The notes under the pieces are model-generated. The model did not search any database, was not told the origin of the DNA, and saw nothing but the letters and a program-made list of their open reading frames with translations. A stretch of 32,000 nucleotides of DNA, taken from Candidatus Kuenenia stuttgartensis (GTDB lineage: Bacteria; Planctomycetota; Brocadiia; Brocadiales; Brocadiaceae). Positions 9,419 through 31,996 of this stretch are shown piece after piece (the first letter of the stretch is position 1; each line of letters begins with the position of its first letter). A program made the position numbers and the translations under genes. The stretch lies in NCBI RefSeq assembly GCF_900232105.1, contig NZ_LT934425.1:3690001-3722000 (forward strand), given 5' to 3'.

Positions 9419-9742
9419 TTATTTTCGGTCTTGATTTTTTTTGTAATGAATGTTGGATGGTGAGTAACCGTTTGCTTGCAGAAAATGGAGAAGTTTTTTA
9501 CTTGCCTTCTGTTCTCTTGAATAGTCTGGCAGCCAGAATTTTGTGGTATCAATCCCGCTGACGGTTTTGTTCCTGGAATTTATAACGTAAGTTTTTTGTT
9601 CAGAAGTAGCACTCTGGTATTTGACAAGGATGATACCGTCATTCGGGTCAAAATCGACTTCAATACGCATACCCTCATCGTCGTATATCTTTCCAATAGC
9701 CTTCACTATATCAACTAATTCATCCAAAGAGTTTCTCTTCAT
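9419..9742 (-). CDS. hypothetical protein (107 aa)
   Basis: This is the only sizeable ORF in a 940-bp gap and it runs convergent to glgC. Its amino-acid composition is balanced and looks like a real protein. I see no SD and recognise no family. Confidence 0.45.
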   Translation of the reverse strand: MKRNSLDELVDIVKAIGKIYDDEGMRIEVDFDPNDGIILVKYQSATSEQKTYVINSRNKTVSGIDTTKFWLPDYSREQKASKKLLHFLQANGYSPSNIHYKKNQDRK

Positions 9743-9867
9743 ATTTTATAATGCAGCAAAAAGCTGCAACCAAAAAGAATTTAACCACGAATCCGCCTTA
9801 CCTACCCACAAAACATAAAAAATCTTTTAGAACCCAACCTAACTGGCATGGACGGAACCAAACAAGG

Positions 9868-9916
9868 ACGAAATACGAAACACGAAATACGAAATTCTAA
9901 GTACGAAATACGAAAC
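9868..9916. repeat. tandem heptanucleotide array (ACGAAAT/ACGAAAC x6 with one divergent unit)
   Basis: The units read acgaaat acgaaac acgaaat acgaaat tctaagt acgaaat acgaaac. Related arrays occur at 13393-13413, 13499-13522 (inverted) and 31003-31030. Confidence 0.85.
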
Positions 9917-9927
9917 AAATTCCATAA

Positions 9928-9990
9928 TCCACCCCTGCACCCCCGCCAGCGGGGGACATTCTGCCTCCTTTGTAGGGGATTAGGGGGAGG
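9928..9990. repeat. GC-rich palindromic repeat module
   Basis: tccacccctgcacccccgccagcgggggac...tgtaggggattagggggagg resembles the ccacccct/aggggattgagggg modules at 5901-5969 and 27759-27826. Confidence 0.6.
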
Positions 9991-10229
9991 ATATTTAGGA
10001 TTTCACCAGTAAATATTTTGCCAAAAAATGCAAGGAAATTACCTGCTTAATTCTCATTGCAATTGTACAGGAATCTTCATTTTATGAAAGCGTTTTTATA
10101 GTGGTGTTTCCAGAAGTCAAAGATTGAGGCAGGCATCAAAAAATTATAGCAAAAGTCATGCGGAGAAAGCGATGTTACGGTTCTTTACACGATTGGCGTG
10201 ATTTGAATGCAAAAAATAATAAATAATAA

Positions 10230-10257
10230 TTGACAATATTGTTTTTTATTATACAAT
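10230..10257 (+). promoter_or_regulatory. sigma-70-like promoter of the porin-like gene
   Basis: TTGACA (10230-10235), a 16-nt spacer, then TACAAT (10252-10257). The predicted transcription start is near 10264, just before the TGAGTCTCA palindrome. Confidence 0.45.
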
Positions 10258-10271
10258 CCTAGACGTGTGAG

Positions 10272-10284
10272 ATTGAGTCTCAAT
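10272..10284. promoter_or_regulatory. conserved palindromic box ATTGAGTCTCAAT (copy 1 of TGAGTCTCA motif)
   Basis: Perfect 6-1-6 palindrome. It lies 14 nt downstream of the -10 hexamer and 14 nt upstream of the SD GGAGG (10299-10303). Confidence 0.5.
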
Positions 10285-10309
10285 ATAGTTTTTAGGATGG
10301 AGGTGTGAT

Positions 10310-11785
10310 GTGAGGTATGTGTGTTTAATTGTTGTATTTGGAGGTATAGGGGTTTTTACTCCGCAGGCATTTGCCCAATCAGGAGATACGGAAATGTTAA
10401 ATAACCGTGTGCAGGCGCTTGAAAACCAATTACAAGAGATTAAGGAACTATTGAAAAACCAAGTATCGAGAGACATGCAGAAAGATGAAGAGATTGCTGA
10501 CTTGAAAAAACAATTAGCTGCGCAAGCGGATGTGGTAAGTAGTAAGGCAGAGAGTGTTCCTGCGGCTTATGCGGGCATGGATGATCAACAAATCACTGCA
10601 GGACAGGAAATGGAAAAGGACTTTTATCTGGCAAAAAAGAGTTCTGAAATGGTGGATAAAGACCTTGGGTCTGCATTTGGAGGGGTTTACACAAAGCCCT
10701 TTTTGAGACGATTCGGCAGGAATACGTATCTTGGAGGATATATGGATTTTGAATTCAGGGCGCCGGAAGATGAAGACGCCGCACACGGGTTTACCCAGAA
10801 AAGATTCATACCGTTTATCTATTCAGACATATCTGACCGTGTAAAACTGGCGACGGAAATTGAGTTTGAGTTCGGCGGCGTTGGCGGCGGCAGATCCGGC
10901 GAAGTGATTCTTGAATTTGGAACTATCGATTTCCTGGTAACCGAATGGATCAACTGGAGAGGCGGCTATCTTCTTACGCCTTTAGGAAAGTTTAATCTTG
11001 TCCATGATTCTCCGATACAGGACCTCACTGACCGACCACTTGTTAACCAGTTGATTATTCCAACCACGCTTACCGATCTGGGGATGGGCTTTTTTGGCTC
11101 GCTCTATCCAACGGAACTGAGCAAGCTCAATTATGAAATTTATGTTACGAATGGTGCGTTCAGGGGGCTGGATAAAGATGGCGATATAAGTATCGGAGAA
11201 ATGAACGGATTAAGAAGCGCAAAGGGGGGGTATAATAATGATAATTATAATAAAAGTCCCGCCGTTGTCGGGCGTGTTTCTTTTAGTCCGTTCATCGGGC
11301 TCGATTTGGGGGGATCTGCGTATACAAGCAGGTATGACGAAAATAACAATAACCAGTTGACCATTTCCGCCCTTGATTTTACCTATCAAAGGGGTGCATT
11401 TGAATTCCTGGGTGAGGGCGCATATGCATTTGTTGAGACGGATGATTTTGCAAAGGATTCAGGGATTACTGATGATATGTGGGGATATTACCTTGAGGCT
11501 CGTTACCACTTTATGCCGTCTTTCCTGAGAAACATGTCCCCAACACTGTTTGGCGATAATTCAACATTTACCGGAGTAGTGCGATGGGATCAGGTGCAGA
11601 CGGCAGGCAGGGATGATGATTTTGCAAAAGTCCATTGGCTGAGATCGAGGGTTACGCCGGGCATTAATTACCGGTACACAGAGGACACGGTATTTAAACT
11701 GGATTATCAAATCAACATGGAAAATAAAGATATGCCTGACGAAGCAAATAACGCATTTCTGTTTTCTGTGGCAACATATTTTTAA
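10310..11785 (+). CDS. outer-membrane beta-barrel porin-like protein with N-terminal coiled coil
   Basis: 491 aa with a GTG start 6 nt after GGAGG. It has a signal peptide (VFGGIGVFTPQAFAQ) and a heptad coiled-coil segment (LNNRVQALENQLQEIKELLKNQ). Alternating aromatic and Gly-rich strands end in a C-terminal ...FSVATYF, the terminal-Phe signature of outer membrane proteins. Confidence 0.8.
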   Translation: MRYVCLIVVFGGIGVFTPQAFAQSGDTEMLNNRVQALENQLQEIKELLKNQVSRDMQKDEEIADLKKQLAAQADVVSSKAESVPAAYAGMDDQQITAGQEMEKDFYLAKKSSEMVDKDLGSAFGGVYTKPFLRRFGRNTYLGGYMDFEFRAPEDEDAAHGFTQKRFIPFIYSDISDRVKLATEIEFEFGGVGGGRSGEVILEFGTIDFLVTEWINWRGGYLLTPLGKFNLVHDSPIQDLTDRPLVNQLIIPTTLTDLGMGFFGSLYPTELSKLNYEIYVTNGAFRGLDKDGDISIGEMNGLRSAKGGYNNDNYNKSPAVVGRVSFSPFIGLDLGGSAYTSRYDENNNNQLTISALDFTYQRGAFEFLGEGAYAFVETDDFAKDSGITDDMWGYYLEARYHFMPSFLRNMSPTLFGDNSTFTGVVRWDQVQTAGRDDDFAKVHWLRSRVTPGINYRYTEDTVFKLDYQINMENKDMPDEANNAFLFSVATYF

Positions 11786-11902
11786 TAAAACATTTAAGGA
11801 ATTTACATGAAACGCTGATGGATACCGTTTTGTTTGAGCAATGAATATTCGATTTGCAAATGTTCAGAAAAACCGGCGTTTTTGTGAGAAGGAGTAAGAT
11901 TT

Positions 11903-13330
11903 ATGAAAGGAAAAGTGCTTGTTTTAGGGGGAGGCCCATGTGGCTTGTCTGCCGCATGGGAATTATCCAAACATGGATATAACGTTACTGTGCTGGAGAA
12001 GGGCTCAAAAGTGGGCGGATTGTGCATTACCAATGAATATAACGGTTATCGGTTTGACCTTGGCGGGCATAGGTTTATTTCTAAAAACAGGGAACTGGTA
12101 GAAGATGTTCGCACAATGATGGGAAGTGAACTTTTGACATCGTCGCGGAAAAGTGTGATTTTGCTGAAGGGAAAGGTCTTTGAATATCCCCTTTCCGCAA
12201 AGGATATATTCCTGAAAATGGATATGTGGACAAATGCAAAGGCATTTATGTCTTATCTTATCGCTGCATTTTCACGTATGTTCGTTCGCAAAAGGGAGGT
12301 GTCGTTTGAGGATTGGATTGTGCGTCGTTTTGGACGTACTCTTTATAATTTGTTTTTTGGCCCTTATACCGAAAAACTGTGGGGCATATCGCCCGGGGAG
12401 ATTTCCTCCGACTGGGCATCACAAAGAATATCACTATTGAATCTAAAGGACGTCCTTTTTCATCTCCTTAAACTGAAGAGGAGGACGCCGAGAACCTATG
12501 CAAAGGGATATTATTATCCCAAAAAAGGCATCGGGCAGATGTTTGATATTATGGGTGGTGAAATAGAAAGTATGGGTGGCAGGATCGTCCTGAATGCAGA
12601 GGTCGTGGGTGTGAATATAAACAACGATGCGATAACCGGCGTGCGGTATCTGAAAGATGGCGTGGAGGAAACGATTGATTGTGATGCGGTGATTTCCACC
12701 ATATCATTGCCGGATCTGATTAATACGTTTCCGGCACATTTGACTGCTGGCATGGAGAAACATATATCTCTGCTGAAATTCAGGGCGGTTCGTTTCCTTA
12801 ATATTCTGGTGAATCTTCCGGATATAAGTGAAAACACATGGATGTATGTGTCCGAAGGAAAATACATCATGACACGCATCCAGGAACCAAAGAGAAGAAG
12901 TTCCTTCAGCGCCCCGGAGGGAAAAACGTCCATAATGCTTGAAATCCCATGCAATGAGGGTGATGAAATTTGGAGTTGCCCAAAGGTGGATTTGCTGGAG
13001 AGATGTTTGAAAGATTTAAAAGACCTTGGCCTCGATATAAGGGATAAGGTCGTCGATTATTTTACCACCGGCGTGACTCACGGATATCCTGTTTATACCC
13101 TTGATTACGTGGAGCATCGCCAAAAACTCTTTCAATTTTTAGAAAGATATGAAAATATAATCACGTGCGGCAGGCAGGGGACTTTCAGGTATATCTTTAT
13201 GGATATTGCAATGGAAATGGGAATTGCCGCTGCCCACCATCTTATGCTGGATACAATGTCGAAGAAGGATGCTATTCATCACATGCGTTCTGAGGATGAG
13301 CTTATTGAAGTAAGCTCTGTGACATCCTAG
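11903..13330 (+). CDS. FAD-dependent oxidoreductase (amine-oxidase / protoporphyrinogen-oxidase-like fold)
   Basis: 475 aa with an N-terminal Rossmann motif VLVLGGGPCGLSAAWELSKHGYNVTVLEKGSKVGG and FDLGGHRF. The SD AAGGAG lies 8 nt upstream. Confidence 0.88.
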   Translation: MKGKVLVLGGGPCGLSAAWELSKHGYNVTVLEKGSKVGGLCITNEYNGYRFDLGGHRFISKNRELVEDVRTMMGSELLTSSRKSVILLKGKVFEYPLSAKDIFLKMDMWTNAKAFMSYLIAAFSRMFVRKREVSFEDWIVRRFGRTLYNLFFGPYTEKLWGISPGEISSDWASQRISLLNLKDVLFHLLKLKRRTPRTYAKGYYYPKKGIGQMFDIMGGEIESMGGRIVLNAEVVGVNINNDAITGVRYLKDGVEETIDCDAVISTISLPDLINTFPAHLTAGMEKHISLLKFRAVRFLNILVNLPDISENTWMYVSEGKYIMTRIQEPKRRSSFSAPEGKTSIMLEIPCNEGDEIWSCPKVDLLERCLKDLKDLGLDIRDKVVDYFTTGVTHGYPVYTLDYVEHRQKLFQFLERYENIITCGRQGTFRYIFMDIAMEMGIAAAHHLMLDTMSKKDAIHHMRSEDELIEVSSVTS

Positions 13331-13344
13331 GCGTTTAGCGCCTC

Positions 13345-13372
13345 GACATCGACAAAATTTTGTCGATATGTC
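13345..13372 (+). terminator. palindromic hairpin just after the oxidoreductase stop (possible terminator)
   Basis: gacatcgacaaaattttgtcgatatgtc has a 16-bp perfect palindromic core, cgacaaaattttgtcg. There is no clear downstream T-tract. Confidence 0.3.
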
Positions 13373-13392
13373 AAAACGTTTAAATTCTAAAA

Positions 13393-13565
13393 TCGAATAT
13401 CGAAATTCGAAACAATACCGAAACTCAAAATTAAAATGTTCAAAACTAAAACCAAGATGTGTGTCCGTTTGCTGTGACCGTAAAACCAGCCTGTTTCATA
13501 TTTCGTGCTTCGAATTTCGTATTTTTATTCCTGCTTGTCTGGTTCTGGCTATACCAGCTTGGAGT
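13393..13565. repeat. mosaic intergenic repeat with inverted heptamer arrays and GCTTGGAG terminus
   Basis: tcgaata tcgaaat tcgaaac (13393-13413) and, in reverse orientation, acgaaat tcgaagc acgaaat (about 13499-13522). The aaattaaaatgtt module is shared with 31037-31050. The terminus ctggctataccagcttggag is shared with 19093-19112 and 31176-31186. Confidence 0.7.
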
Positions 13566-13605
13566 AATTTAGTTAATGTTAATAGTGCAAGGGTGTATAA
13601 CGTAA

Positions 13606-15273
13606 ATGGCAGAGCAAAATCTGACAGCTATCAAAAAAAAAGAAAATTTATTAAAGGGAAACATGTTTCCATTATGTGCAGTTGCACTATGTCTTGTGAC
13701 AAGACTGTTGTTCTTTGGTAGATATGTTGACGAGTGGGATAGTGTTAACTTTGCCTTTGGTTTGTCAAAGGGATACGATATTTTACACGACCAGCCGCAT
13801 TTCCCGGGGTACCCGGTATACATGTTTTTTAGCTGGATAGGGTATAAGATTATCGGTTCTGACATTAAGGCATTGATTTTTTCAGGTATTTTATTTAGCA
13901 GCATGGCGGTATTTCCCCTGTATGAACTGGCAAAACGGATGTTTTCCAAAAATGTGTCAATACTTGCTGTCATTTTATACATAGTAAATCCGCAAATATG
14001 GTTGCAGGCGGAAAAACCACTCTCTGACGCCTTTGGCTTATTTTTTGTGATTACTGCTGTTTTGTTTTCTTATCTTGCGTTAGAACGGGTGGCTATTTCA
14101 AAGGATATTCCGGAATATCTGGAGAGGAATGAAAATAATGCTTTGACATATCTGGCCTTCAGCGGGTTTCTGCTGGGTTTGGGGATTGGCGTAAGGGTTA
14201 CATACCTCGCGTTAGCCCCTGTTATGCTTTACGTGGCTTTTCTGTTAAGGAATATCTTTTCTGTCCGAAGGATTGTCGCATGGGGCGGCCTTGGTTTTGC
14301 TGCCGGGGTCTCGTCATGGCTGGTCTATCTGATAATACATTTTACCCCTGGCAAGTTCTTTAAAAAATTTTTACGTCATGCTGAGTACCATTTTTATGAA
14401 GACGGCAATTCTATTGTTACAACAGACAGTTTTTTTGAAAGGGTGCATGATATCGCTTACCGTTTCATTGCCCATTGTATGGGGCTGTGGTGGCAGGATG
14501 CGTTTTTACTGCGCGTAGTGCCTACAATTATTGTGGTAGTCTCTCTGGTGTATTTCTTTAAAAAGGTGAAATGGTCTGAAAAGATACGGTTTTTATCGGT
14601 AGTTTTCCTCTTTTATGGTTTATGGGTTCTTTTTATTCAGGATGCTATACGTCAGATCATGGTGCTTGTTCCTTTTCTGGCAATGGTGATAAGCGCCGGA
14701 TTGCTTTATTTTTATACGTATTATCTGAAGAATAAAAGATACGGAAGAATATCCTTTTATCTTATGACAGGGGTATTTATTTTATCACATGCGGTTGACT
14801 CCGTGAGGATTGTATCGATAAACAGGGATATAAAACCTCCCTCTGTTTCGCAAATAGACTATATAAAAGAGAATTATAAAAAAGAAGATACTAAATTCTA
14901 CTGTCTGAATGACTGGCGGCTGTTCCAGTATTACGCCCCTGAATGGTGTGACAGGAAAAACACTCACGTATATTTTGTCTCACATATGAATGGGGTGAAA
15001 AATGACTTAAAACGGCTGAAGAAGAAACCGGAAAATGTGCTTATCTCCTCAAAACTTTTTGGACGCCACAAATATGCAGACAGGTTGAAGGAACTGGCAG
15101 TATTTGAAAGAGACGTTTATGGAGTTGCAGATTATAACTTGCTTGCATTGTATCGCTTTGAAAGCAAGGCGAAGATAAAAGAGCCTGTGGAAAGGAGAGA
15201 TCATTCAAATAGACAAGGTATTGTTGAAGAACAGGAGGGCATGCCGTTGGTAAAATTTGATGAAACAAGATAA
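13606..15273 (+). CDS. GT-C fold glycosyltransferase (family 39/83-like, ArnT/PMT-type) integral membrane protein
   Basis: 555 aa with about 10 or more hydrophobic segments. The first-loop acidic motif YVDEWDSVNF is comparable to the DE motif of PMT/ArnT enzymes, and there is a soluble C-terminal domain. Confidence 0.78.
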   Translation: MAEQNLTAIKKKENLLKGNMFPLCAVALCLVTRLLFFGRYVDEWDSVNFAFGLSKGYDILHDQPHFPGYPVYMFFSWIGYKIIGSDIKALIFSGILFSSMAVFPLYELAKRMFSKNVSILAVILYIVNPQIWLQAEKPLSDAFGLFFVITAVLFSYLALERVAISKDIPEYLERNENNALTYLAFSGFLLGLGIGVRVTYLALAPVMLYVAFLLRNIFSVRRIVAWGGLGFAAGVSSWLVYLIIHFTPGKFFKKFLRHAEYHFYEDGNSIVTTDSFFERVHDIAYRFIAHCMGLWWQDAFLLRVVPTIIVVVSLVYFFKKVKWSEKIRFLSVVFLFYGLWVLFIQDAIRQIMVLVPFLAMVISAGLLYFYTYYLKNKRYGRISFYLMTGVFILSHAVDSVRIVSINRDIKPPSVSQIDYIKENYKKEDTKFYCLNDWRLFQYYAPEWCDRKNTHVYFVSHMNGVKNDLKRLKKKPENVLISSKLFGRHKYADRLKELAVFERDVYGVADYNLLALYRFESKAKIKEPVERRDHSNRQGIVEEQEGMPLVKFDETR

Positions 15274-15330
15274 GAAATAATTGCTTAGCCGCATCCGTTA
15301 AGGGACTAGGTATTTTCTATTATACCGTAG

Positions 15331-15386
15331 CAGTTTACAGTTTACAGTCGGCTGTAGGCAAATTGCAGATTGAGGGCTGAGGACAG
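15331..15386. repeat. heptamer/inverted-repeat module (cagttta x2 ... caaattgcagattgagggctgaggac)
   Basis: Close match to 19017-19066 (caatcta x2 cagtcgg caaattgcagattgaggactgaggac). Confidence 0.75.
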
Positions 15387-15414
15387 AGCTTCTCAAAAGG
15401 GGAATATAAAAAGT

Positions 15415-15444
15415 TTGACTCTTGGAACGATGCGTTCATAAAAA
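15415..15444 (+). promoter_or_regulatory. candidate promoter for 15481 gene
   Basis: TTGACT (15415-15420), an 18-nt spacer, then TAAAAA(T) (15439-15444). The SD GGAAGGAG lies 8 nt before the ATG. Confidence 0.3.
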
Positions 15445-15480
15445 ATGAGATTTTTATTTATTCAGGAAGGAGTGTGAAAG

Positions 15481-15900
15481 ATGGTAAAAACGTTTTATTT
15501 GTCGTTGTGTTTTGTATGTGTTACAGGTGTGCTTGCTTCTTTAAGCGAGGTAAAGGCACAGTCCGTGGGTGGCGCGAGCGTCTCCGGCACGGTAACCAGC
15601 GAGCAGAATGAACCGGTAAAAGACGCAAATGTAGTATTGAAAAATAAGAAGACAAAATTCAAAGACAAGGGTACTACTGGAACAAACGGTGAATACGAAT
15701 TTTCCAATCTTGATGCAGGAAAATATAAGCTAACCGTAAAAAAGTCAGGATATTCAAATGGGAAAAAGAGTTTTAAGCTTAAAGATGGACGGGAAAAAAC
15801 GGTTGACATTACGTTGAAAACAAAAGAGAACGGAGGCGGTAGTGGTTCCGGTAATGGAGGTGGAAGTGGGGGAGGTTCTGGTTCCGGAAGTGGCGGCTGA
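15481..15900 (+). CDS. small secreted carboxypeptidase-regulatory-like (Ig-like beta-sandwich) domain protein with Gly/Ser C-terminal tail
   Basis: 139 aa with a signal peptide (...LASLSEVKA|Q). The pattern VSGTVTSEQNEPVKDANVVL...TNGEYEFSNLDAGKYKLTVKKSGY is typical of the CarboxypepD_reg fold. It ends GGGSGSGNGGGSGGGSGSGSGG. Confidence 0.8.
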   Translation: MVKTFYLSLCFVCVTGVLASLSEVKAQSVGGASVSGTVTSEQNEPVKDANVVLKNKKTKFKDKGTTGTNGEYEFSNLDAGKYKLTVKKSGYSNGKKSFKLKDGREKTVDITLKTKENGGGSGSGNGGGSGGGSGSGSGG

Positions 15901-15937
15901 TAAAATGTCTCTCAACATGGCAGTATACTTAAGGGCG

Positions 15938-15970
15938 GCACAGACAAACAAAGTTTGTCTGTGCTTATCT
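15938..15970 (+). terminator. rho-independent terminator-like hairpin
   Basis: gcacagacaaac-aaa-gtttgtctgtgc (12-bp perfect stem, 15938-15964) followed by ttatctt. It is nearly the same hairpin as 31273-31297. Confidence 0.55.
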
Positions 15971-15998
15971 TAAAAAAATTTTAAATTATCTGTGAGAG

Positions 15999-16007
15999 TG
16001 AGTCTCA
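15999..16007. promoter_or_regulatory. TGAGTCTCA box, copy 2
   Basis: Context gtgagagTGAGTCTCAgtat, compared with copy 1 gtgagatTGAGTCTCAatat. It lies 10 nt upstream of the SD GGAGG (16018-16022) and the ATG at 16031. Confidence 0.5.
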
Positions 16008-16030
16008 GTATTATCAAGGAGGAGTATTTT

Positions 16031-17467
16031 ATGTTGTTTAAGAAAGTATTGTTGTCGTTTGGTTTTATGGGAATTTTGTATGGTGTGCAGTCATTGCCGC
16101 AGGATCACTCAATGGTTTTGGCGGCATCTATCAACGGTATTATAGTAGATGAAAATGGCGTTGGGATAGAGAAGGCCGAGGTGACGATTAAAGGGAAAAA
16201 AGGGCATGATAAGAAGCAAAAAATAAAAACAGATTCCGATGGGCTTTATGAGTTTACTGGACTGAAAAAAGGAAAATACACGATTAAGGTGACGTCTGTT
16301 GGATATAAAAACGGGAAGGAAAAAGTAAAGATTGGAAATAACGCAGATGATGTCGAGGGTGATTTTACATTGAATTTTGATGAATACGTGAAGACAAACG
16401 ACACTGAAACGATGGATGATGCCGTATCGGCTTTTCAGCAAATTGGCACATTGAGAAAAGAAGACCCTGTCAATATAGAAGAGATTGTATCTCTATATGA
16501 GGAATATTTACAGGATTTAACGCAGCAATTGGATAGTGAATATAGTCTGACCATGGACGAAGACCTGATTTCTGCAATGGGTGATATTGAAAATGATATT
16601 GACCCAAAGCTGGCAGGGCAGGTAATCGACAAAACGCTGCAACGGGTATTTTACCTGGCGATTTATGACAGAATTACAGAGGTCAACAATGATTTTGATG
16701 ACGAAAGTACTTCATATCTGGGAACATTATGGGATGAGGCATATGCTGCTTATCAGGCATTGTTTAGTACGGCAGACAGGGAAAATAAGGTGCTGACGGA
16801 GGACCGTTTGTCCATAGAAACAGGGAGTAATCCGAATCTTGAGGATGGGGTTACTGTTGCATTTATACGGGGAAAAGCAGCGTTAAATAAAAAAGATTTA
16901 GACGAAGACGAGATTACCGTAGGGGTCCAGAGGCAGGTTATCCGGTTATCCCTTATCAGGTCTTTCTATATTGCAGTATTGAGGGAAGTGGAGAGCATTA
17001 TCAATAATCGCGATACAGACCTTGAGAAGGCATTGGAATATCAGAAAGAAGGAGAAGTTTATTACAGAATCATCGAAGAATATGTTTCCCGTGATAATCC
17101 TTCCGGAAATGAGACGATAAAAAGCCAACTGACTGGCGATGTGTCGGAGGTAGATGCCGATACCATTGTAAGTGAAATGAGCAGGGGTTTTATTGGCCGG
17201 GTAGAAGGGGAGTTGGATGCTGCCGAATCCAACATAAGCGAAGGTGACCGTAAAGATGCCATGATTGTAGCTGAAGAGGCATTGCTTTATTCAGAAGTAT
17301 TTCTGGAAGATTTGGGATTACGGTTGGGTGATGATGCTATGGATGATATGGAAGATGCGCTCCATGATTTGAGGAATGCCAGCGATAAAATGAAAGCATC
17401 ATCTGCCGCATCCGCCATAGAAACAATCAGTTCACTTATTGAGAGTTACGAAAACGAATTGCTGTAG
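16031..17467 (+). CDS. secreted protein: CarboxypepD_reg-like domain plus about 370-aa highly acidic helical domain of unknown function
   Basis: The track ORF starts at GTG 15992, but I prefer the ATG at 16031, which has AAGGAGG 8 nt upstream and gives the signal peptide MLFKKVLLSFGFMGILYGVQS. The Ig-like domain (INGIIVDENGVGIEKAEVTIKG...DGLYEFTGLKKGKYTIKVTSVGY) is paralogous to that of the 15481 gene. Confidence 0.8.
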   Translation: MLFKKVLLSFGFMGILYGVQSLPQDHSMVLAASINGIIVDENGVGIEKAEVTIKGKKGHDKKQKIKTDSDGLYEFTGLKKGKYTIKVTSVGYKNGKEKVKIGNNADDVEGDFTLNFDEYVKTNDTETMDDAVSAFQQIGTLRKEDPVNIEEIVSLYEEYLQDLTQQLDSEYSLTMDEDLISAMGDIENDIDPKLAGQVIDKTLQRVFYLAIYDRITEVNNDFDDESTSYLGTLWDEAYAAYQALFSTADRENKVLTEDRLSIETGSNPNLEDGVTVAFIRGKAALNKKDLDEDEITVGVQRQVIRLSLIRSFYIAVLREVESIINNRDTDLEKALEYQKEGEVYYRIIEEYVSRDNPSGNETIKSQLTGDVSEVDADTIVSEMSRGFIGRVEGELDAAESNISEGDRKDAMIVAEEALLYSEVFLEDLGLRLGDDAMDDMEDALHDLRNASDKMKASSAASAIETISSLIESYENELL

Positions 17468-17629
17468 TTTAGGTTTTTAATCTGAACCCGCTTTATGTAT
17501 TGTCAATGTAGCGTTGATTATCTCAGGCGTTATTATCCAAATAAACCACGTGGAAGCCCGCCAGGAAAATGGAAGTATGTTGTGAGTTTGGATTTTATTT
17601 AACGGTCTTTCGTGTAGCAAGGAGATTCT

Positions 17630-18616
17630 ATGAACAGAAATAAAAAGATTTATTCGATACTTTTTTTTTTGATACTGGCAACAGGGATTTCTGTAACGGC
17701 TTATTACAGGTCCGGAAATGCAGAAGAGCATTCTCAATATGAACATGCAAAATCGGATGTAAAAAACAAGTTAGGTAAAAAAAGCAAAAAGATTAGCTTT
17801 ACCAATGATATATTGCCGCTCTTTACTGAGCCACAAAAAAGAGGCGGTGAGGAATCGGTTGTATGCGTCAGATGCCATTTTACGAGTCTTACCATAGAAA
17901 GCAGCGGAATTCAGGAAAACGCCTTTGCAGAATTTAGCCTGGGGTCATATGCGGATATTATGGCAGGGGCTGACGCAGGTACAGAACCTATTATTGATAT
18001 TGAAGATCCTGATATAAGCTTGTTGTTGCAAAGGCTGGAGGGAAAGGGCGATGATATGGCGGCGGGCGACGCGCGCATGCCATACGGCGGCCCGTTTTTT
18101 AAAAAAAATAAAATCAAAAAAATCCGCACCTGGATAGAACAGGGGGCAATTGATGATACTCCGGAACCTGATTTTAATCGTGATGTACTTCCACTGTTGA
18201 CTAAATCGGTAAATGGCAATATTCCTTGCAGTCTATGTCACTATAATAATAATGATGCTAGTTCCAAAGAACGTTCGCCTGCTCAGGCATGCATGGATTT
18301 GACAAGTTGGGAGGGGATAATATCAGGTGCTGACGGGATTGAACACGAGGAACTTGTGGATAGAGAAAACCCATCGAATAGTTTACTAGTACGACGGCTG
18401 CGCGGTCAGGTAACGGAAGAGGAAAAAGAAAATGATCACAGAATGCCTTACGGAGGCCCCTATTTTAGCGAATATGAAATCCAGAAGATAGAGCGCTGGA
18501 TAGCCAGCGGGGCAAAGGGGCCTAATGGTGAGGATCCCAGTGAGGCAGACATCAGCGATGCAGGGGTATGTCCCGAAGGAAGTGGCAGCGGCAGCGGAAG
18601 TGGAAACGATAAATGA
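17630..18616 (+). CDS. dihaem Planctomycete-type cytochrome c (two PSCyt1-like repeats) with Gly/Ser tail
   Basis: 328 aa with AAGGAG 5 nt upstream and an N-terminal transmembrane/signal segment. It has two internal repeats, each with CxxCH (CVRCH, CSLCH) ... SLL(L/V)(Q/R)RL.G ... RMPYGGP(F/Y)F ... I..WI..GA, the pattern I recognise as the Planctomycete cytochrome C domain. It ends PEGSGSGSGSGNDK. Confidence 0.85.
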   Translation: MNRNKKIYSILFFLILATGISVTAYYRSGNAEEHSQYEHAKSDVKNKLGKKSKKISFTNDILPLFTEPQKRGGEESVVCVRCHFTSLTIESSGIQENAFAEFSLGSYADIMAGADAGTEPIIDIEDPDISLLLQRLEGKGDDMAAGDARMPYGGPFFKKNKIKKIRTWIEQGAIDDTPEPDFNRDVLPLLTKSVNGNIPCSLCHYNNNDASSKERSPAQACMDLTSWEGIISGADGIEHEELVDRENPSNSLLVRRLRGQVTEEEKENDHRMPYGGPYFSEYEIQKIERWIASGAKGPNGEDPSEADISDAGVCPEGSGSGSGSGNDK

Positions 18617-18942
18617 ATAGTGTACTTTCCGGGAAAACCGGCGGCAAAAAAAAAGAATGGAGGTGTGTTGTGTCAGCAATGGTAATAAGTAGTGCAGAGG
18701 GCTTTGCCGGTATGGCGAAACCACTCGAAGATTACGGTATTACAAATATTCATTTTTGTAGTGTTAAGGAGAGAACGGATTTGGACGCTACCGCAATTGC
18801 ATTTGTGCCGTTTGTTGATTTTATCATAGTAGGGAGAGATGCCGGTGGTTCTCCCTACCTCAATACTATACTGAAAGAAGCAAAAGAACTTCAGATACCA
18901 GTATTGCAAGAGAGCTGCATAGCGGAGCAGGGGAAAAAATGA
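18613..18942 (+). CDS. DUF2325-like small protein (paralogue of 27267..27584)
   Basis: The ATG at 18613 overlaps the upstream stop (ATGA). An alternative start is GTG 18670, 6 nt after GGAGG (18659-18663). From residue 23 it aligns by eye with the 27267 protein: MVISSAEGFAGMAKPLEDYGITNIHF / MSVLIVGGDHLGSIPKELDKIGVNDIKH, and VDFIIVGRD...KEAKELQIPV / MDFIIVLCD...EYASLKEIPV. Confidence 0.6.
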   Translation: MNSVLSGKTGGKKKEWRCVVSAMVISSAEGFAGMAKPLEDYGITNIHFCSVKERTDLDATAIAFVPFVDFIIVGRDAGGSPYLNTILKEAKELQIPVLQESCIAEQGKK

Positions 18943-19016
18943 GCCCTGAATAAAACGGGGAGCAATTACCATTTTCCTTGCTGCTATTGAATGGTGAAAT
19001 CCGAAGTCATCAACAC

Positions 19017-19112
19017 TCAATCTACAATCTACAGTCGGCAAATTGCAGATTGAGGACTGAGGACTAATGACTGTTTTTTTGCTTGTTTACTTCTGGCTAT
19101 GCCAGCTTAGGA
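19017..19112. repeat. heptamer/inverted-repeat module plus GCTTAGGAG terminus
   Basis: caatcta caatcta cagtcgg caaattgcagattgagga ctgagga ctaatga ... ttctggctatgccagcttaggag. It matches 15331-15386 and the terminus at 13541-13565. Confidence 0.75.
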
Positions 19113-19458
19113 GGGAAAATAAAAAATGAGAAGGTTTGCATATTGGTATCTCTTTTCTTTGACGGGTTTGTTGGTTATAAGTATGTTGTACGCATTAGTT
19201 TGATTGTATAGAAATTATTACGGAGTTATTCATCATGTATTATGTTTTTAAATTGTGTAAGGTGCTCTTTGTAGTAACGATGTAGTTTTTTGAAAAATTC
19301 CAATAATAGCGCTGCTTGCCGCATAGTGTAGGGGAGAAGCATTTGTTATAATCGGTTGCTGCTCGTTCCTCACTTGATATCTACGCCCACTAAATTCATG
19401 TAGTGCGACGAACCTCGTCGCACTACAAATGACAATTTCCAGTTTCAAAAGACTAAAG

Positions 19459-21341
19459 TGTTACTCTTTGTAACGGATGTTCACCCCTGCCAAAACGCAT
19501 AAGTGCTTAATACATAGTTTGTTAAGGCTGTATTTTTAATAAATATGTAGTCACTAATATATTGTTATTATACGACAATATACTTGACGGATAATGGTTG
19601 TTATCTGTACAATGGTGGACATGCATATTGTAGAGAACAAGTCAAAATCCGGTAAAAAAATCTATCGATCTACCCTTCTGCGGGAATCGTACCGTGAGGA
19701 TGGGAAGGTCAAGAAACGCACCATTGCGAATCTGTCGAATTGCACTCCCCTGGAGATTGAAGCGATAAGACTTGCACTCGCACATAAAGACGATCTCTGT
19801 GCATTGGGCGCATTGTCAGAATCGGTGAAACTCCATGAGGGTTTGTCTATGGGAGCAGCGTGGAGCGTGTACCAAGTGGCAAAGGAATTAGGGATAGAAG
19901 AGGCATTGGGAAAGGACTTTGAAGGAAAGCTGGCGCTTTGGCAAGTAATGGCAAGGGTAATAGGCCAGGGGTCAAGACTGTCTGCAGTAAGGCTGGCGCA
20001 GATACATGCTGCGGGTGACGTCCTGGATATGAAGCGTGGGTTTGACGAGAACAATCTGTACGATAATTTGTCATGGTTGTCAGAGAATCAGGCAAAGATA
20101 GAGCGAAAGCTGTTTGAGTTAAGACGAGGAGGCAATAAGCCGAAGTTGTTTTTGTATGACGTGACGAGCAGTTATTTAGAGGGGAAGTCGAATCATTTTG
20201 GTGAGTACGGGTATAATCGTGACGGCAAAAAGAGGAAAAAACAGATAGTGATCGGTATGCTTTGTGATGAATCCGGGGAGCCGGTATCAACAGAAGTATT
20301 TAGGGGCAACACCCAGGATCCGAAGACCTTTGAATCTCAGGTAAAGAAGGTATTAGAGCGGTTTGGATGCAAAGATGTAACGATTGTAGGAGATCGTGGG
20401 ATGATCAAGACGGTGCAAATCGAAAGTTTACCGGAAGGGTTTCATTACATAACGGCGATAACTAAGCCGCAGATAGAGTCGTTGATAAATAAAGGGATAC
20501 TGCAATTAGGATTGTTCGAAGAAAAGCTCTGCGAGATAAAGGATGATGAGGTTAGATATATTCTGAGGCGCAATCCGGTAAGGGCGGAAGAGATGTCAAA
20601 GACCCGTGTATCAAAATTACAGAGTATAGAGAAATACATCGTGAAGAAGAACAGTTATCTGAAGGAACATCCTAAGTCGTCAGTATCGAAGGCACTGGAA
20701 ACAACAAGGGAAAGGCTAACGAGATTGAAACTTGATGGGTGGGTGCAGATAAAAGAAGAGGATAGGACGCTAAAGATAGAGAGAGATGAGGAAGCATTAA
20801 AGGAGGCATCATACCTTGATGGTTGTTACGCAATCAAGACTGATCTTGAGGAGAACGAGGCGGATACCAATCTGGTACATGAACGATACAAGGATTTAAC
20901 GGAAGTGGAGAAGGCGTTTCGGGACTGTAAGACGGTGAATTTGGAGGTTCGTCCGGTGTATGTAAGAAAGGAGGATAGTACACGGGGACATGTGTTTGTG
21001 GTAATGCTTGCGTACATGATAATTCGAAGGCTGCGCAGAGCGTGGAAGAATTTTGACTTGACGGTAGAGGAAGGTCTCGCACAATTGACGACCATTTGTT
21101 CGATGGAAGTAACAATCAAAGGCCAAAAAGCTAGTTGCCAGAAGATCCCGCGTCCGCGGCAACAATCACATGAATTATTAGAGGCATTACAGATAAAGTT
21201 GCCAGAAGTATTGCCAAGCCGGAACATACGGGTAGTCACTAGAAAAAAGCTTGCTGTTCGGCGTAAAAGTCAATAAATATAAGGCTTTTACGGCACTTTT
21301 GTTTTTTGACTTGGGGTGAACATCCGTTGTAAGTAATAACA
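19459..21341 (+). mobile_element. IS1634-family (IS4-related) insertion sequence, about 1.88 kb, apparently intact
   Basis: A single 560-aa DDE transposase ORF is bounded by imperfect terminal inverted repeats: gttactctttgtaacggatgttcacccc (19460-19487) versus the reverse complement of 21313-21340, gttattacttacaacggatgttcacccc. That is 23/28 identical, including a perfect 16-bp inner run. No target-site duplication is recognisable, so the ends are uncertain to a few nt. Confidence 0.85.
19594..21276 (+). CDS. IS1634-family DDE transposase
   Basis: The N-terminus VENKSKSGKKIYRSTLLRESYREDGKVKKRTIANLS is typical of the family. Catalytic blocks are present: LFLYDVTSSYLEG, IVGDRGMI and YKDLTEVEKAFRDCK (the Y..R...E......K-like region). 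Alternative ATG starts lie at 19612 and 19621. Confidence 0.9.
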   Translation: MVVICTMVDMHIVENKSKSGKKIYRSTLLRESYREDGKVKKRTIANLSNCTPLEIEAIRLALAHKDDLCALGALSESVKLHEGLSMGAAWSVYQVAKELGIEEALGKDFEGKLALWQVMARVIGQGSRLSAVRLAQIHAAGDVLDMKRGFDENNLYDNLSWLSENQAKIERKLFELRRGGNKPKLFLYDVTSSYLEGKSNHFGEYGYNRDGKKRKKQIVIGMLCDESGEPVSTEVFRGNTQDPKTFESQVKKVLERFGCKDVTIVGDRGMIKTVQIESLPEGFHYITAITKPQIESLINKGILQLGLFEEKLCEIKDDEVRYILRRNPVRAEEMSKTRVSKLQSIEKYIVKKNSYLKEHPKSSVSKALETTRERLTRLKLDGWVQIKEEDRTLKIERDEEALKEASYLDGCYAIKTDLEENEADTNLVHERYKDLTEVEKAFRDCKTVNLEVRPVYVRKEDSTRGHVFVVMLAYMIIRRLRRAWKNFDLTVEEGLAQLTTICSMEVTIKGQKASCQKIPRPRQQSHELLEALQIKLPEVLPSRNIRVVTRKKLAVRRKSQ

Positions 21342-27197: not shown

Positions 27198-27225
27198 TTG
27201 ACAATCAGATTTTTTTTAGTATTAT
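27198..27225 (+). promoter_or_regulatory. sigma-70-like promoter of the DUF2325 gene
   Basis: TTGACA (27198-27203), a 16-nt spacer, then TATTAT (27220-27225). The TTGACAAT hexamer context and layout are the same as at 10230. Confidence 0.4.
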
Positions 27226-27233
27226 ATTGCGAA

Positions 27234-27242
27234 TGAGTCTCA
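27234..27242. promoter_or_regulatory. TGAGTCTCA box, copy 3
   Basis: Context gcgaaTGAGTCTCAataac. It lies 8 nt after the -10 hexamer and 12 nt before the SD GGAGG (27255-27259). Confidence 0.5.
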
Positions 27243-27266
27243 ATAACAATATTTGGAGGATTGAAA

Positions 27267-31525: not shown

Positions 31526-31996
31526 ATGAAACGGAATGTTGCCTTATTAATGATCACTTTTTTTGCTTTCATAGCACTTGCCGGTTGCGCTACAGGACAA
31601 TGGGGACGAAGGAATTTAACCAATGTTTCACGGTATGTCAACGGCGATGCAGCATCGGTTTGGGAGGCGGTTGATCAGGCGCTTATTGGAATACGCGTGA
31701 AAGAGAAGAATGTAGAAAAAGGACTTCTGATAACTGACTGGGTTAGTGGCTATTCCACAACACAGAACATGGGAGTGCTTTTGGAGGGGCGATGGCACGA
31801 ACGTTACCGTTTATTCATTACCGTTGTGCCGGAGCAAAACAAAACCTATCTTTCGATAGGATCTCAGGTGGAACAGAAGGCTCCTGGCGGAACGCGCGCG
31901 TATCGCTGGGACCGCATTCCGTCAAATGGACTCCCCGAACAAATGATCCTTGATAGGGTTGAACAGATTCTTAGTGCAATGGAGCAGGCACCTTGA
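31526..31996 (+). CDS. lipoprotein of unknown function
   Basis: 156 aa. The signal peptide has a lipobox: MKRNVALLMITFFAFIALAG|C. The ORF is complete, with TGA at 31994-31996. Confidence 0.75.
   Translation: MKRNVALLMITFFAFIALAGCATGQWGRRNLTNVSRYVNGDAASVWEAVDQALIGIRVKEKNVEKGLLITDWVSGYSTTQNMGVLLEGRWHERYRLFITVVPEQNKTYLSIGSQVEQKAPGGTRAYRWDRIPSNGLPEQMILDRVEQILSAMEQAP

Follow-up and report, generated by a model that had tools for sequence, protein, structure and literature searches.

Three copies of a short inverted repeat in a 32,000-nt stretch of the Candidatus Kuenenia stuttgartensis genome (hereafter the window) are probably Fur-family operators that repress an iron-uptake regulon, with Fur-A, one of the two Fur-family proteins of this bacterium, as the most likely regulator. 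That they serve some metal-responsive repressor is highly likely. The Fur reading draws on the sites themselves, on how well they are conserved and where they sit relative to promoters, on their likeness to published Fur boxes and on the linkage of the site to fur and feoB in relatives.

An earlier note on this DNA had pointed to three identical 9-mers. Our search of the window reproduced them exactly: TGAGTCTCA occurs at 10274-10282, 15999-16007 and 27234-27242, always on the plus strand, and the gap to the GGAGG Shine–Dalgarno sequence, given there as 10-16 nt, measures 16, 10 and 12 nt for copies 1, 2 and 3, respectively. Each copy forms the core of a 15-mer, TGAGAnTGAGTCTCA, with copy 3 starting TGCGA, and it is this 15-mer, TGAGA-n-TGAGTCTCA, that constitutes the conserved unit across genomes (coordinates in Table 1). 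The description of the element as a 6-1-6 palindrome holds for copy 1 and fails for copies 2 and 3; the conserved unit is instead a 15-bp 7-1-7 inverted repeat, TGAGAnT-G-AGTCTCA, with six of its seven pairs complementary and its centre at the G three bases 5' of the one originally proposed. It is thus a repeat of the TGAnAAT-N-ATTnTCA type that characterizes Fur boxes, and a C at position 6 turns it into a perfect palindrome. Across the upstream regions of orthologues, the unit reads nTGAGAnTGAGTCTCAnT, with most positions invariant or nearly so (TG-GA-TGAG-C-CA among the orthologue sites) and position 6 free. Because G is invariant at position 10, the anammox box departs from the symmetry of an ideal 7-1-7 repeat, which counts against the Fur reading. 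Further, many genomes display a fourth, weaker half-site past the 15-mer (CTCA-n-TCTCA), giving an array of ~21 bp similar to a pair of overlapping 7-1-7 repeats.

The three sites stand out from the rest of the genome, a single contig of 4.406 Mb with 41% G+C. Counting both strands, TGAGTCTCA is found 7 times against the 9-19 expected under Markov models, and three of the seven copies lie inside 17 kb, in leaders and on the coding strand. Being this rare, the 9-mer is not a dispersed repeat, and the motif is not dense in coding DNA either; the earlier note had named both as observations that would speak against an operator. An 18-nt weight matrix, built from 35 sites that come exclusively from other genomes and scanned over the whole Kuenenia genome, ranks the three window sites first to third, in the order site 3, site 1 and site 2 (scores in Table 1). 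The next-best match reaches 18.2 bits, while shuffled genomes yielded 0.2 matches at a score of at least 22 bits, with a top score of 23.1 over ten shuffles, and about five matches are expected in a shuffled genome at a score of at least 16 bits. No fourth site was found in the window. We took the 18.2-bit match, which lies where a DnaJ-TPR gene ends, ahead of purC, as a chance occurrence rather than a regulon member. One-mismatch variants of the 9-mer were likewise set aside as a wider Kuenenia regulon, as they fall mostly within an IS element or coding DNA. The two downstream 491-codon ORFs encode unrelated proteins, and therefore the shared leader is not a relic of gene duplication.

We then turned to 29 related genomes and examined the 160 nt upstream of each orthologue of the three genes that follow the sites. 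The element is present in 35 of the 46 such regions from other genera and precedes orthologues of all three genes across the anammox genera; the lack of conservation that the earlier note had considered as a possible objection is therefore not what the relatives display. Searches with the pattern, allowing at most one mismatch and using the reversed pattern as the control, extended this distribution. In the order, 75 of 78 genomes have a match (300 matches; reversed control, 21), and in the phylum Planctomycetota 94 of 149 do so (302 matches; reversed control, 39). Outside the anammox group, two perfect palindromes, TGAGACTGAGTCTCA and TGAGAATGATTCTCA, are the common forms; one non-anammox planctomycete family has the site before feoA, PepSY_TM and DUF1559 genes.

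Some individual loci deserve mention in their own right. In two non-anammox planctomycete loci (L214 and L222), perfect-palindrome sites lie ~100-200 nt upstream of DUF1559 proteins with a pilin-type N-terminal methylation motif, which suggests that part of the large, unexplained planctomycete DUF1559 family is iron-regulated. A 156-aa protein encoded in the window (31526-31996) has a homologue in one related genus with a strong site and promoter (L089; the same promoter and site recur in L087); no site was found upstream of the Kuenenia gene itself. In a large-genome member of the order (G024:C68:13344-17137, L016), the porin gene is transcribed divergently from a Fur-family gene of a third type and from a DtxR-like paralogue, and the intergenic region shared by the two directions contains two motif sites.

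Table 1. Features of the predicted regulon and of its candidate regulators, with one unrelated palindrome (bacterioferritin leader). Coordinates refer to the window unless marked as genome; L numbers are our handles for loci.
Feature	Coordinates	Strand	Basis or remark
Predicted sigma-70-type promoter of the porin operon, TTGACA-16-TACAAT	10230..10257	+	11/12 positions, best match in 9700-19700; -10 ends 10 nt before site 1
Putative operator site 1, TGAGATTGAGTCTCA	10268..10282 (18-mer 10267-10284)	+	27.2 bits; kept upstream of porin orthologues L002-L012, L015, L020
Porin gene, first after site 1	10310..11785	+	Predicted structure and Foldseek
FAD amine-oxidase-fold oxidoreductase	11903..13330	+	Pfam domain assignment
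Putative operator site 2, TGAGAGTGAGTCTCA	15993..16007 (18-mer 15992-16009)	+	23.7 bits; kept upstream of orthologues L022-L026
Secreted protein with CarboxypepD_reg Ig-like domain and acidic helical domain, first after site 2	16031..17467	+	Pfam
Cytochrome-like protein	17630-18616	+	ORF list; one sub-threshold CTI match
DUF2325-like small protein	18613-18942	+	ORF list
Predicted promoter of the DUF2325 gene, TTGACA-16-TATTAT	27198..27225	+	11/12 positions, best match in region; -10 ends 2 nt before site 3
Putative operator site 3, TGCGAATGAGTCTCA	27228..27242 (18-mer 27227-27244)	+	28.6 bits; upstream of most DUF2325 orthologues among L042-L060
DUF2325 gene, 105 aa	27267..27584	+	PF10087, E 1.6e-16
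Bacterioferritin leader palindrome, TGGCGATA-G-TATCGCCA	genome 217679-217695		Perfect 8-1-8 palindrome
feoB operon (L093)	genome 359489-363030		Ends with DtxR-family gene
DtxR/IdeR-family protein with FeoA domain	genome 359489-360157	-	Fe_dep_repr_C and FeoA detected
Hybrid site upstream of feoB, TTGATAATGAGTCTCAGC	genome 363013		17.4 bits
Fur-A (P0001), Fur-like protein	genome 1065433-1065882	-	Closest to C. jejuni Fur and Fur equivalog families
Fur-B, PerR-like	genome about 2849024-2849455	+	Closest to B. subtilis PerR

The genes that follow the sites in the window code for a porin, a secreted acidic protein and a DUF2325 protein. The first had been described from the letters alone as a porin-like outer membrane protein, and its AlphaFold2 model (mean pLDDT 71; 75-92 over most of the barrel) bears this out: a helix of ~57 residues (26-82) is followed by a disordered linker and a 16-strand-type porin barrel, for which the best Foldseek matches are the porins OmpC, OmpU and OprO (E 1e-11 to 1e-10). 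The flavoprotein oxidoreductase gene downstream is probably co-transcribed with it, and the orthologue of this gene in G024 has a site of its own ~100 nt upstream (L099). Residues 233-367 of the acidic protein produce a weak match, below the cut-off, to the NCBIfam family of FEA1-related lipoproteins (E 7.6e-6). There is also a weak resemblance between its Ig-like domain and the anammox S-layer protein family. The cytochrome-like protein and the DUF2325-like small protein encoded next had no match above the cut-off in Pfam or NCBIfam, and the small protein had none below it either; going by their spacing and overlap, we infer that these two genes share an operon with the acidic-protein gene. 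A sequence search of the PDB with the porin, the acidic protein and the DUF2325 protein retrieved nothing. The porin and DUF2325 genes are only a few kb apart in many anammox genomes (G011, G012, G018, G019, G025, G026 and G029), and in G025 the porin, DUF2325, feoB and DtxR-like genes form a single cluster. In Kuenenia, the porin and DUF2325 genes are separated by 15 kb, with a cytochrome-encapsulin locus and other genes in between.

The predicted regulon reaches past the window to feoB. Upstream of the Kuenenia feoB gene lies a hybrid site with one classical half, TGATAAT-G-AGTCTCA. By its score alone it is within chance, given the number of matches of at least 16 bits in a shuffled genome, and it becomes credible only through its conserved position, because the site recurs at the feoB promoter in many genera. 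At the feoB promoters of Kuenenia and other anammox genera, it is oriented opposite to transcription. The site thus precedes iron-uptake genes in several taxa, namely feoB or feoA in anammox and non-anammox genomes, as well as PepSY_TM genes. In Kuenenia, the distance from the Fur-box-like site to the probable feoB start (MNIKSAG...) is ~150 nt longer than in its congener G003, and the longest Kuenenia feoB ORF (781 aa) probably starts too early. A different palindrome is found in the bacterioferritin leader, where it is unique in the genome at zero mismatches; its sequence is unrelated to the Fur-type box, so we do not count it as the same element, and it may be the site of another regulator.

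The earlier note had proposed that the three window genes form a shared repressor regulon, a proposal that gains support from the top-three matrix rank and from the conservation at the orthologues. As predicted here, the regulon comprises the porin and flavoprotein operon, the acidic-protein and cytochrome operon, the DUF2325 gene and the distant feoB operon. Because feoB joins the three gene groups of the window, this set is probably an iron-starvation regulon.

As for the regulator, the domain search found no obvious transcription factor encoded in the window. The Kuenenia fur gene is unlinked to the sites and sits behind an rRNA operon. We found no site of at least 11 bits in the 92 kb around the Fur-family genes of the anammox genomes; there is thus no sign of fur autoregulation in them, and we discarded this idea. 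A physical link between Fur and the site is provided by the non-anammox loci. In six loci from five non-anammox genomes, orthologues of Fur-A (39-45% identity) adjoin both the site and feoB: the order is fur, site, feoB in G173, G124, G149 and G213, and fur comes after the site in two loci of G147. In three further loci (G079, G205 and G110; L240-L248 for the whole set) Fur-A orthologues are found within a few kb of sites. Further, the motif is present in 81 of the 116 genomes with a Fur-A homologue versus 13 of the 33 without one (Fisher p = 0.002, a value that is overstated since related genomes are not independent). We infer the identity of the binding protein, the metal that it senses and its repressive effect; the sensed metal could also be manganese or zinc rather than iron.

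The DtxR-like gene at the end of the site-bearing feoB operon first suggested a DtxR/IdeR-family protein as the regulator, controlling its own operon and the three of the window. This protein is present in all 30 anammox relatives, its operon carries the site in at least 11 genomes, and paralogues of it adjoin a DUF2325 gene and site in G006 and a porin gene and sites in G024. It keeps the primary metal ligands of IdeR, Cys102, Glu105 and His106, together with His79 and Glu83 of the ancillary site, and the inner TGAG-N-CTCA of the element recalls the inner TTAG-S-CTAA of the DtxR box. However, the motif does not track the gene across the phylum: it occurs in 25 of the 39 genomes with a DtxR-like protein and in 69 of the 110 without one (p = 1), and several of the lineages that show the linkage of fur, site and feoB have no DtxR orthologue. 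The N-terminal helix-turn-helix is also divergent. Domain searches detected Fe_dep_repr_C and FeoA but not PF01325, although the alignment with IdeR runs through the N-terminal region; there, the stretch aligned with the DNA-contact region of IdeR reads SFAEAYLKTL. Moreover, a gene riding in a Fur-controlled feoB operon would co-localize with the sites anyway. The phylum-wide data and the divergent DNA-binding region led us to demote the DtxR-like protein from its place as leading regulator, and we regard control by it as unlikely.

Control by the other Fur-family protein, in which case the regulon would be a peroxide or redox response, appears improbable. Fur-B is closest to a PerR, and PerR boxes are also 7-1-7 repeats. 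Further, C. jejuni has a DUF2325 gene, cj1384c, that is reported to be under PerR control and that showed the strongest induction of all genes in oxidative light stress (PMC9426514). Against this, the Fur-family genes beside sites in other planctomycetes are nearer to Fur-A (39-45% identical) than to Fur-B (20-26%), feoAB is a typical Fur target, and the box sequence matches the boxes listed for targets of the Fur of E. faecalis.

The position of the sites with respect to promoters is consistent with repression by Fur-A. The note had claimed a good promoter just upstream in two cases, and the best promoter matches of the respective regions do lie directly before copies 1 and 3; copy 2 has no good -35 box. 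At site 3, the -10 element is so close that the predicted transcription start falls inside the site. In the promoters of orthologues, the site begins 2-3 nt past the -10 for the DUF2325 genes and 7-22 nt past it for the porin genes. We extended this to 135 sites scoring at least 20 bits by searching for TTGACA-N16-18-TATAAT with at least 9 of 12 positions within 70 nt upstream: 62 sites have such a promoter match, and in 59 of the 135 the distance from the end of the -10 box to the site is -1 to 16 nt, a placement displayed by 1.8% of random positions in the same loci. Nearly all of the extra sites that we inspected were intergenic. With the element thus overlapping or adjoining the predicted promoters and transcription starts, its position is the classical location of a repressor operator; together with the matrix rank and the conservation, this favors the dimeric DNA-binding protein site that the earlier note had put forward. 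By eye, both an ECF-sigma promoter and a CRP-like site were rejected, given the inconsistent spacing and the lack of a conserved AAC motif at -35.

It is very improbable that the element acts in the mRNA leader instead, as a 5' hairpin or a target of a protein or sRNA that controls translation or stability. Such a role might explain why the asymmetric element is never inverted at the three window genes or their orthologues and lies 10-40 nt before the Shine–Dalgarno sequence, why some variants keep the TTGAGA/TCTCAA pairing through G-U (the gagtcttaa forms), and why the variant of L045 changes both arms together. Yet the leaders fold no more stably than shuffled sequences (z +0.3, +1.2 and +1.2) and differently among the copies, with copy 3 having no hairpin; no Rfam family matches anywhere in the window; the left arm would stay untranscribed at the DUF2325 promoters, where the element starts 2-3 nt past the -10; and the feoB promoters carry it in the opposite orientation. 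Six sites have an uncompensated C opposite T, and elsewhere in the phylum perfect palindromes make up many of the sites. Rather than a conserved, stable, fully transcribed and strand-specific structure, we thus find unremarkable folds in an element that contains the predicted transcription start at DUF2325 promoters and is reversed at feoB, which makes an RNA mechanism unlikely, as the note had already argued for a hairpin.

Under repression by Fur-A, metal-loaded Fur dimers would, when iron is sufficient, bind the 15-bp repeat TGAGAnT-G-AGTCTCA; the extra, weaker half-site of many genomes would lengthen the target to ~21 bp, the layout of classical Fur boxes, which accommodate two dimers. As the repeat overlaps or directly follows the predicted transcription start, the bound Fur would block RNA polymerase. 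When iron becomes scarce, the repressor would leave and the whole regulon would be turned on together.

Anammox bacteria need very large amounts of iron and, to our knowledge, are largely devoid of classical siderophore uptake. The predicted regulon might, as a tentative proposal, outline a hitherto undescribed route of iron acquisition in these organisms, and DUF2325 would then be a conserved iron- or redox-handling protein that is controlled, as in Campylobacter, by a Fur-family regulator. The route would feature a porin that is trimeric, iron-repressed and equipped with a coiled-coil neck, a FEA1-related secreted acidic protein with a dihaem cytochrome partner, FeoB and the small cytoplasmic DUF2325 protein. 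The operator itself points to a testable role in iron starvation for conserved but unannotated genes, which encode the porin, DUF2325 and the FEA1-like acidic protein; two of these groups flank the cytochrome-encapsulin locus. As far as we know, anammox bacteria are not genetically manipulable, are still kept as enrichment cultures and have had their gene control almost unstudied; a conserved operator renders a regulon computable and thereby offers a handle on it. Among open-access papers and preprints, we found none that describes this box or its regulon for anammox bacteria or for Planctomycetota.

The classical Fur box, as known from E. coli and B. subtilis, is the 19-bp GATAATGATAATCATTATC, made up of overlapping 7-1-7 repeats TGATAAT-N-ATTATCA. 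The planctomycete element shares with it the overlapping heptamers and the placement over the promoter and differs from it by the change of GAT to GAG in each repeat unit. In Kuenenia, the classical repeat has no exact occurrence, five matches against one in shuffled sequence at one mismatch, and 64 against 51 at up to two mismatches. This bare enrichment fits a Fur that uses the GAG variant there; more generally, the classical 7-1-7 boxes of Fur, PerR and Zur, all tried as candidates, were barely or not enriched in this genome.

The iron box of DtxR/IdeR is TTAGGTTAGSCTAACCTAA. The two have in common a 19-bp palindrome with an inner 4-1-4 core, the association with iron-uptake control and a DtxR-family gene nearby. 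The element departs from the DtxR box in sequence, in the distance between direct half-sites, which is 6 nt here versus 5 nt, and in not following the DtxR gene across the phylum. A parallel in gene content is offered by the fur-feoB-dtxR iron operons, since fur, feoB and a DtxR-FeoA fusion follow one another in this order, with the promoter palindrome, in L240 and L248. DUF1559 pilin-like genes are also found downstream of sites; in contrast, the Kuenenia fur is unlinked and its regulon is centred on anammox-specific envelope genes.

The nearest relatives of the element are the Fur boxes of E. faecalis. The earlier note did not recognize the motif as a known box, but it is a Fur-box variant nearly identical to these (PMC6056675). 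In that bacterium, deletion of fur derepressed yclQPN, feoAB, fhuD and fhuCBG by 5- to 18-fold, and the operons derepressed at least 5-fold are listed with the sites TGAGAATGATTCTCA, TGAGAACGATTCTCA and TGATAACGATTCTCA (PMC6056675, Table 1); the derepression was measured, whereas the boxes were predicted in silico. Like the planctomycete element, these boxes are 15-bp 7-1-7 repeats with G at position 4 and C at position 12, and they are found in front of feoAB and further operons for iron uptake. With A at position 6, the Kuenenia unit agrees at 14 of 15 positions with a box assigned, in silico, to Fur-repressed operons. The exact TGAGAATGATTCTCA is found in non-anammox planctomycetes, whereas the Kuenenia and anammox form has the invariant G instead of T at position 10 (AGTCTCA versus ATTCTCA) and leaves position 6 free. 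The GAG variant earlier listed for enterococci is thus the common form across Planctomycetota, and its recognition may improve regulon annotation. The predicted targets also differ: where the E. faecalis regulon controls ABC siderophore transporters, that of the anammox bacteria appears to control a porin, a secreted acidic protein and DUF2325. The mechanism is a switch of an ordinary type, and what is new is the gene set that it defines for the anammox bacteria.
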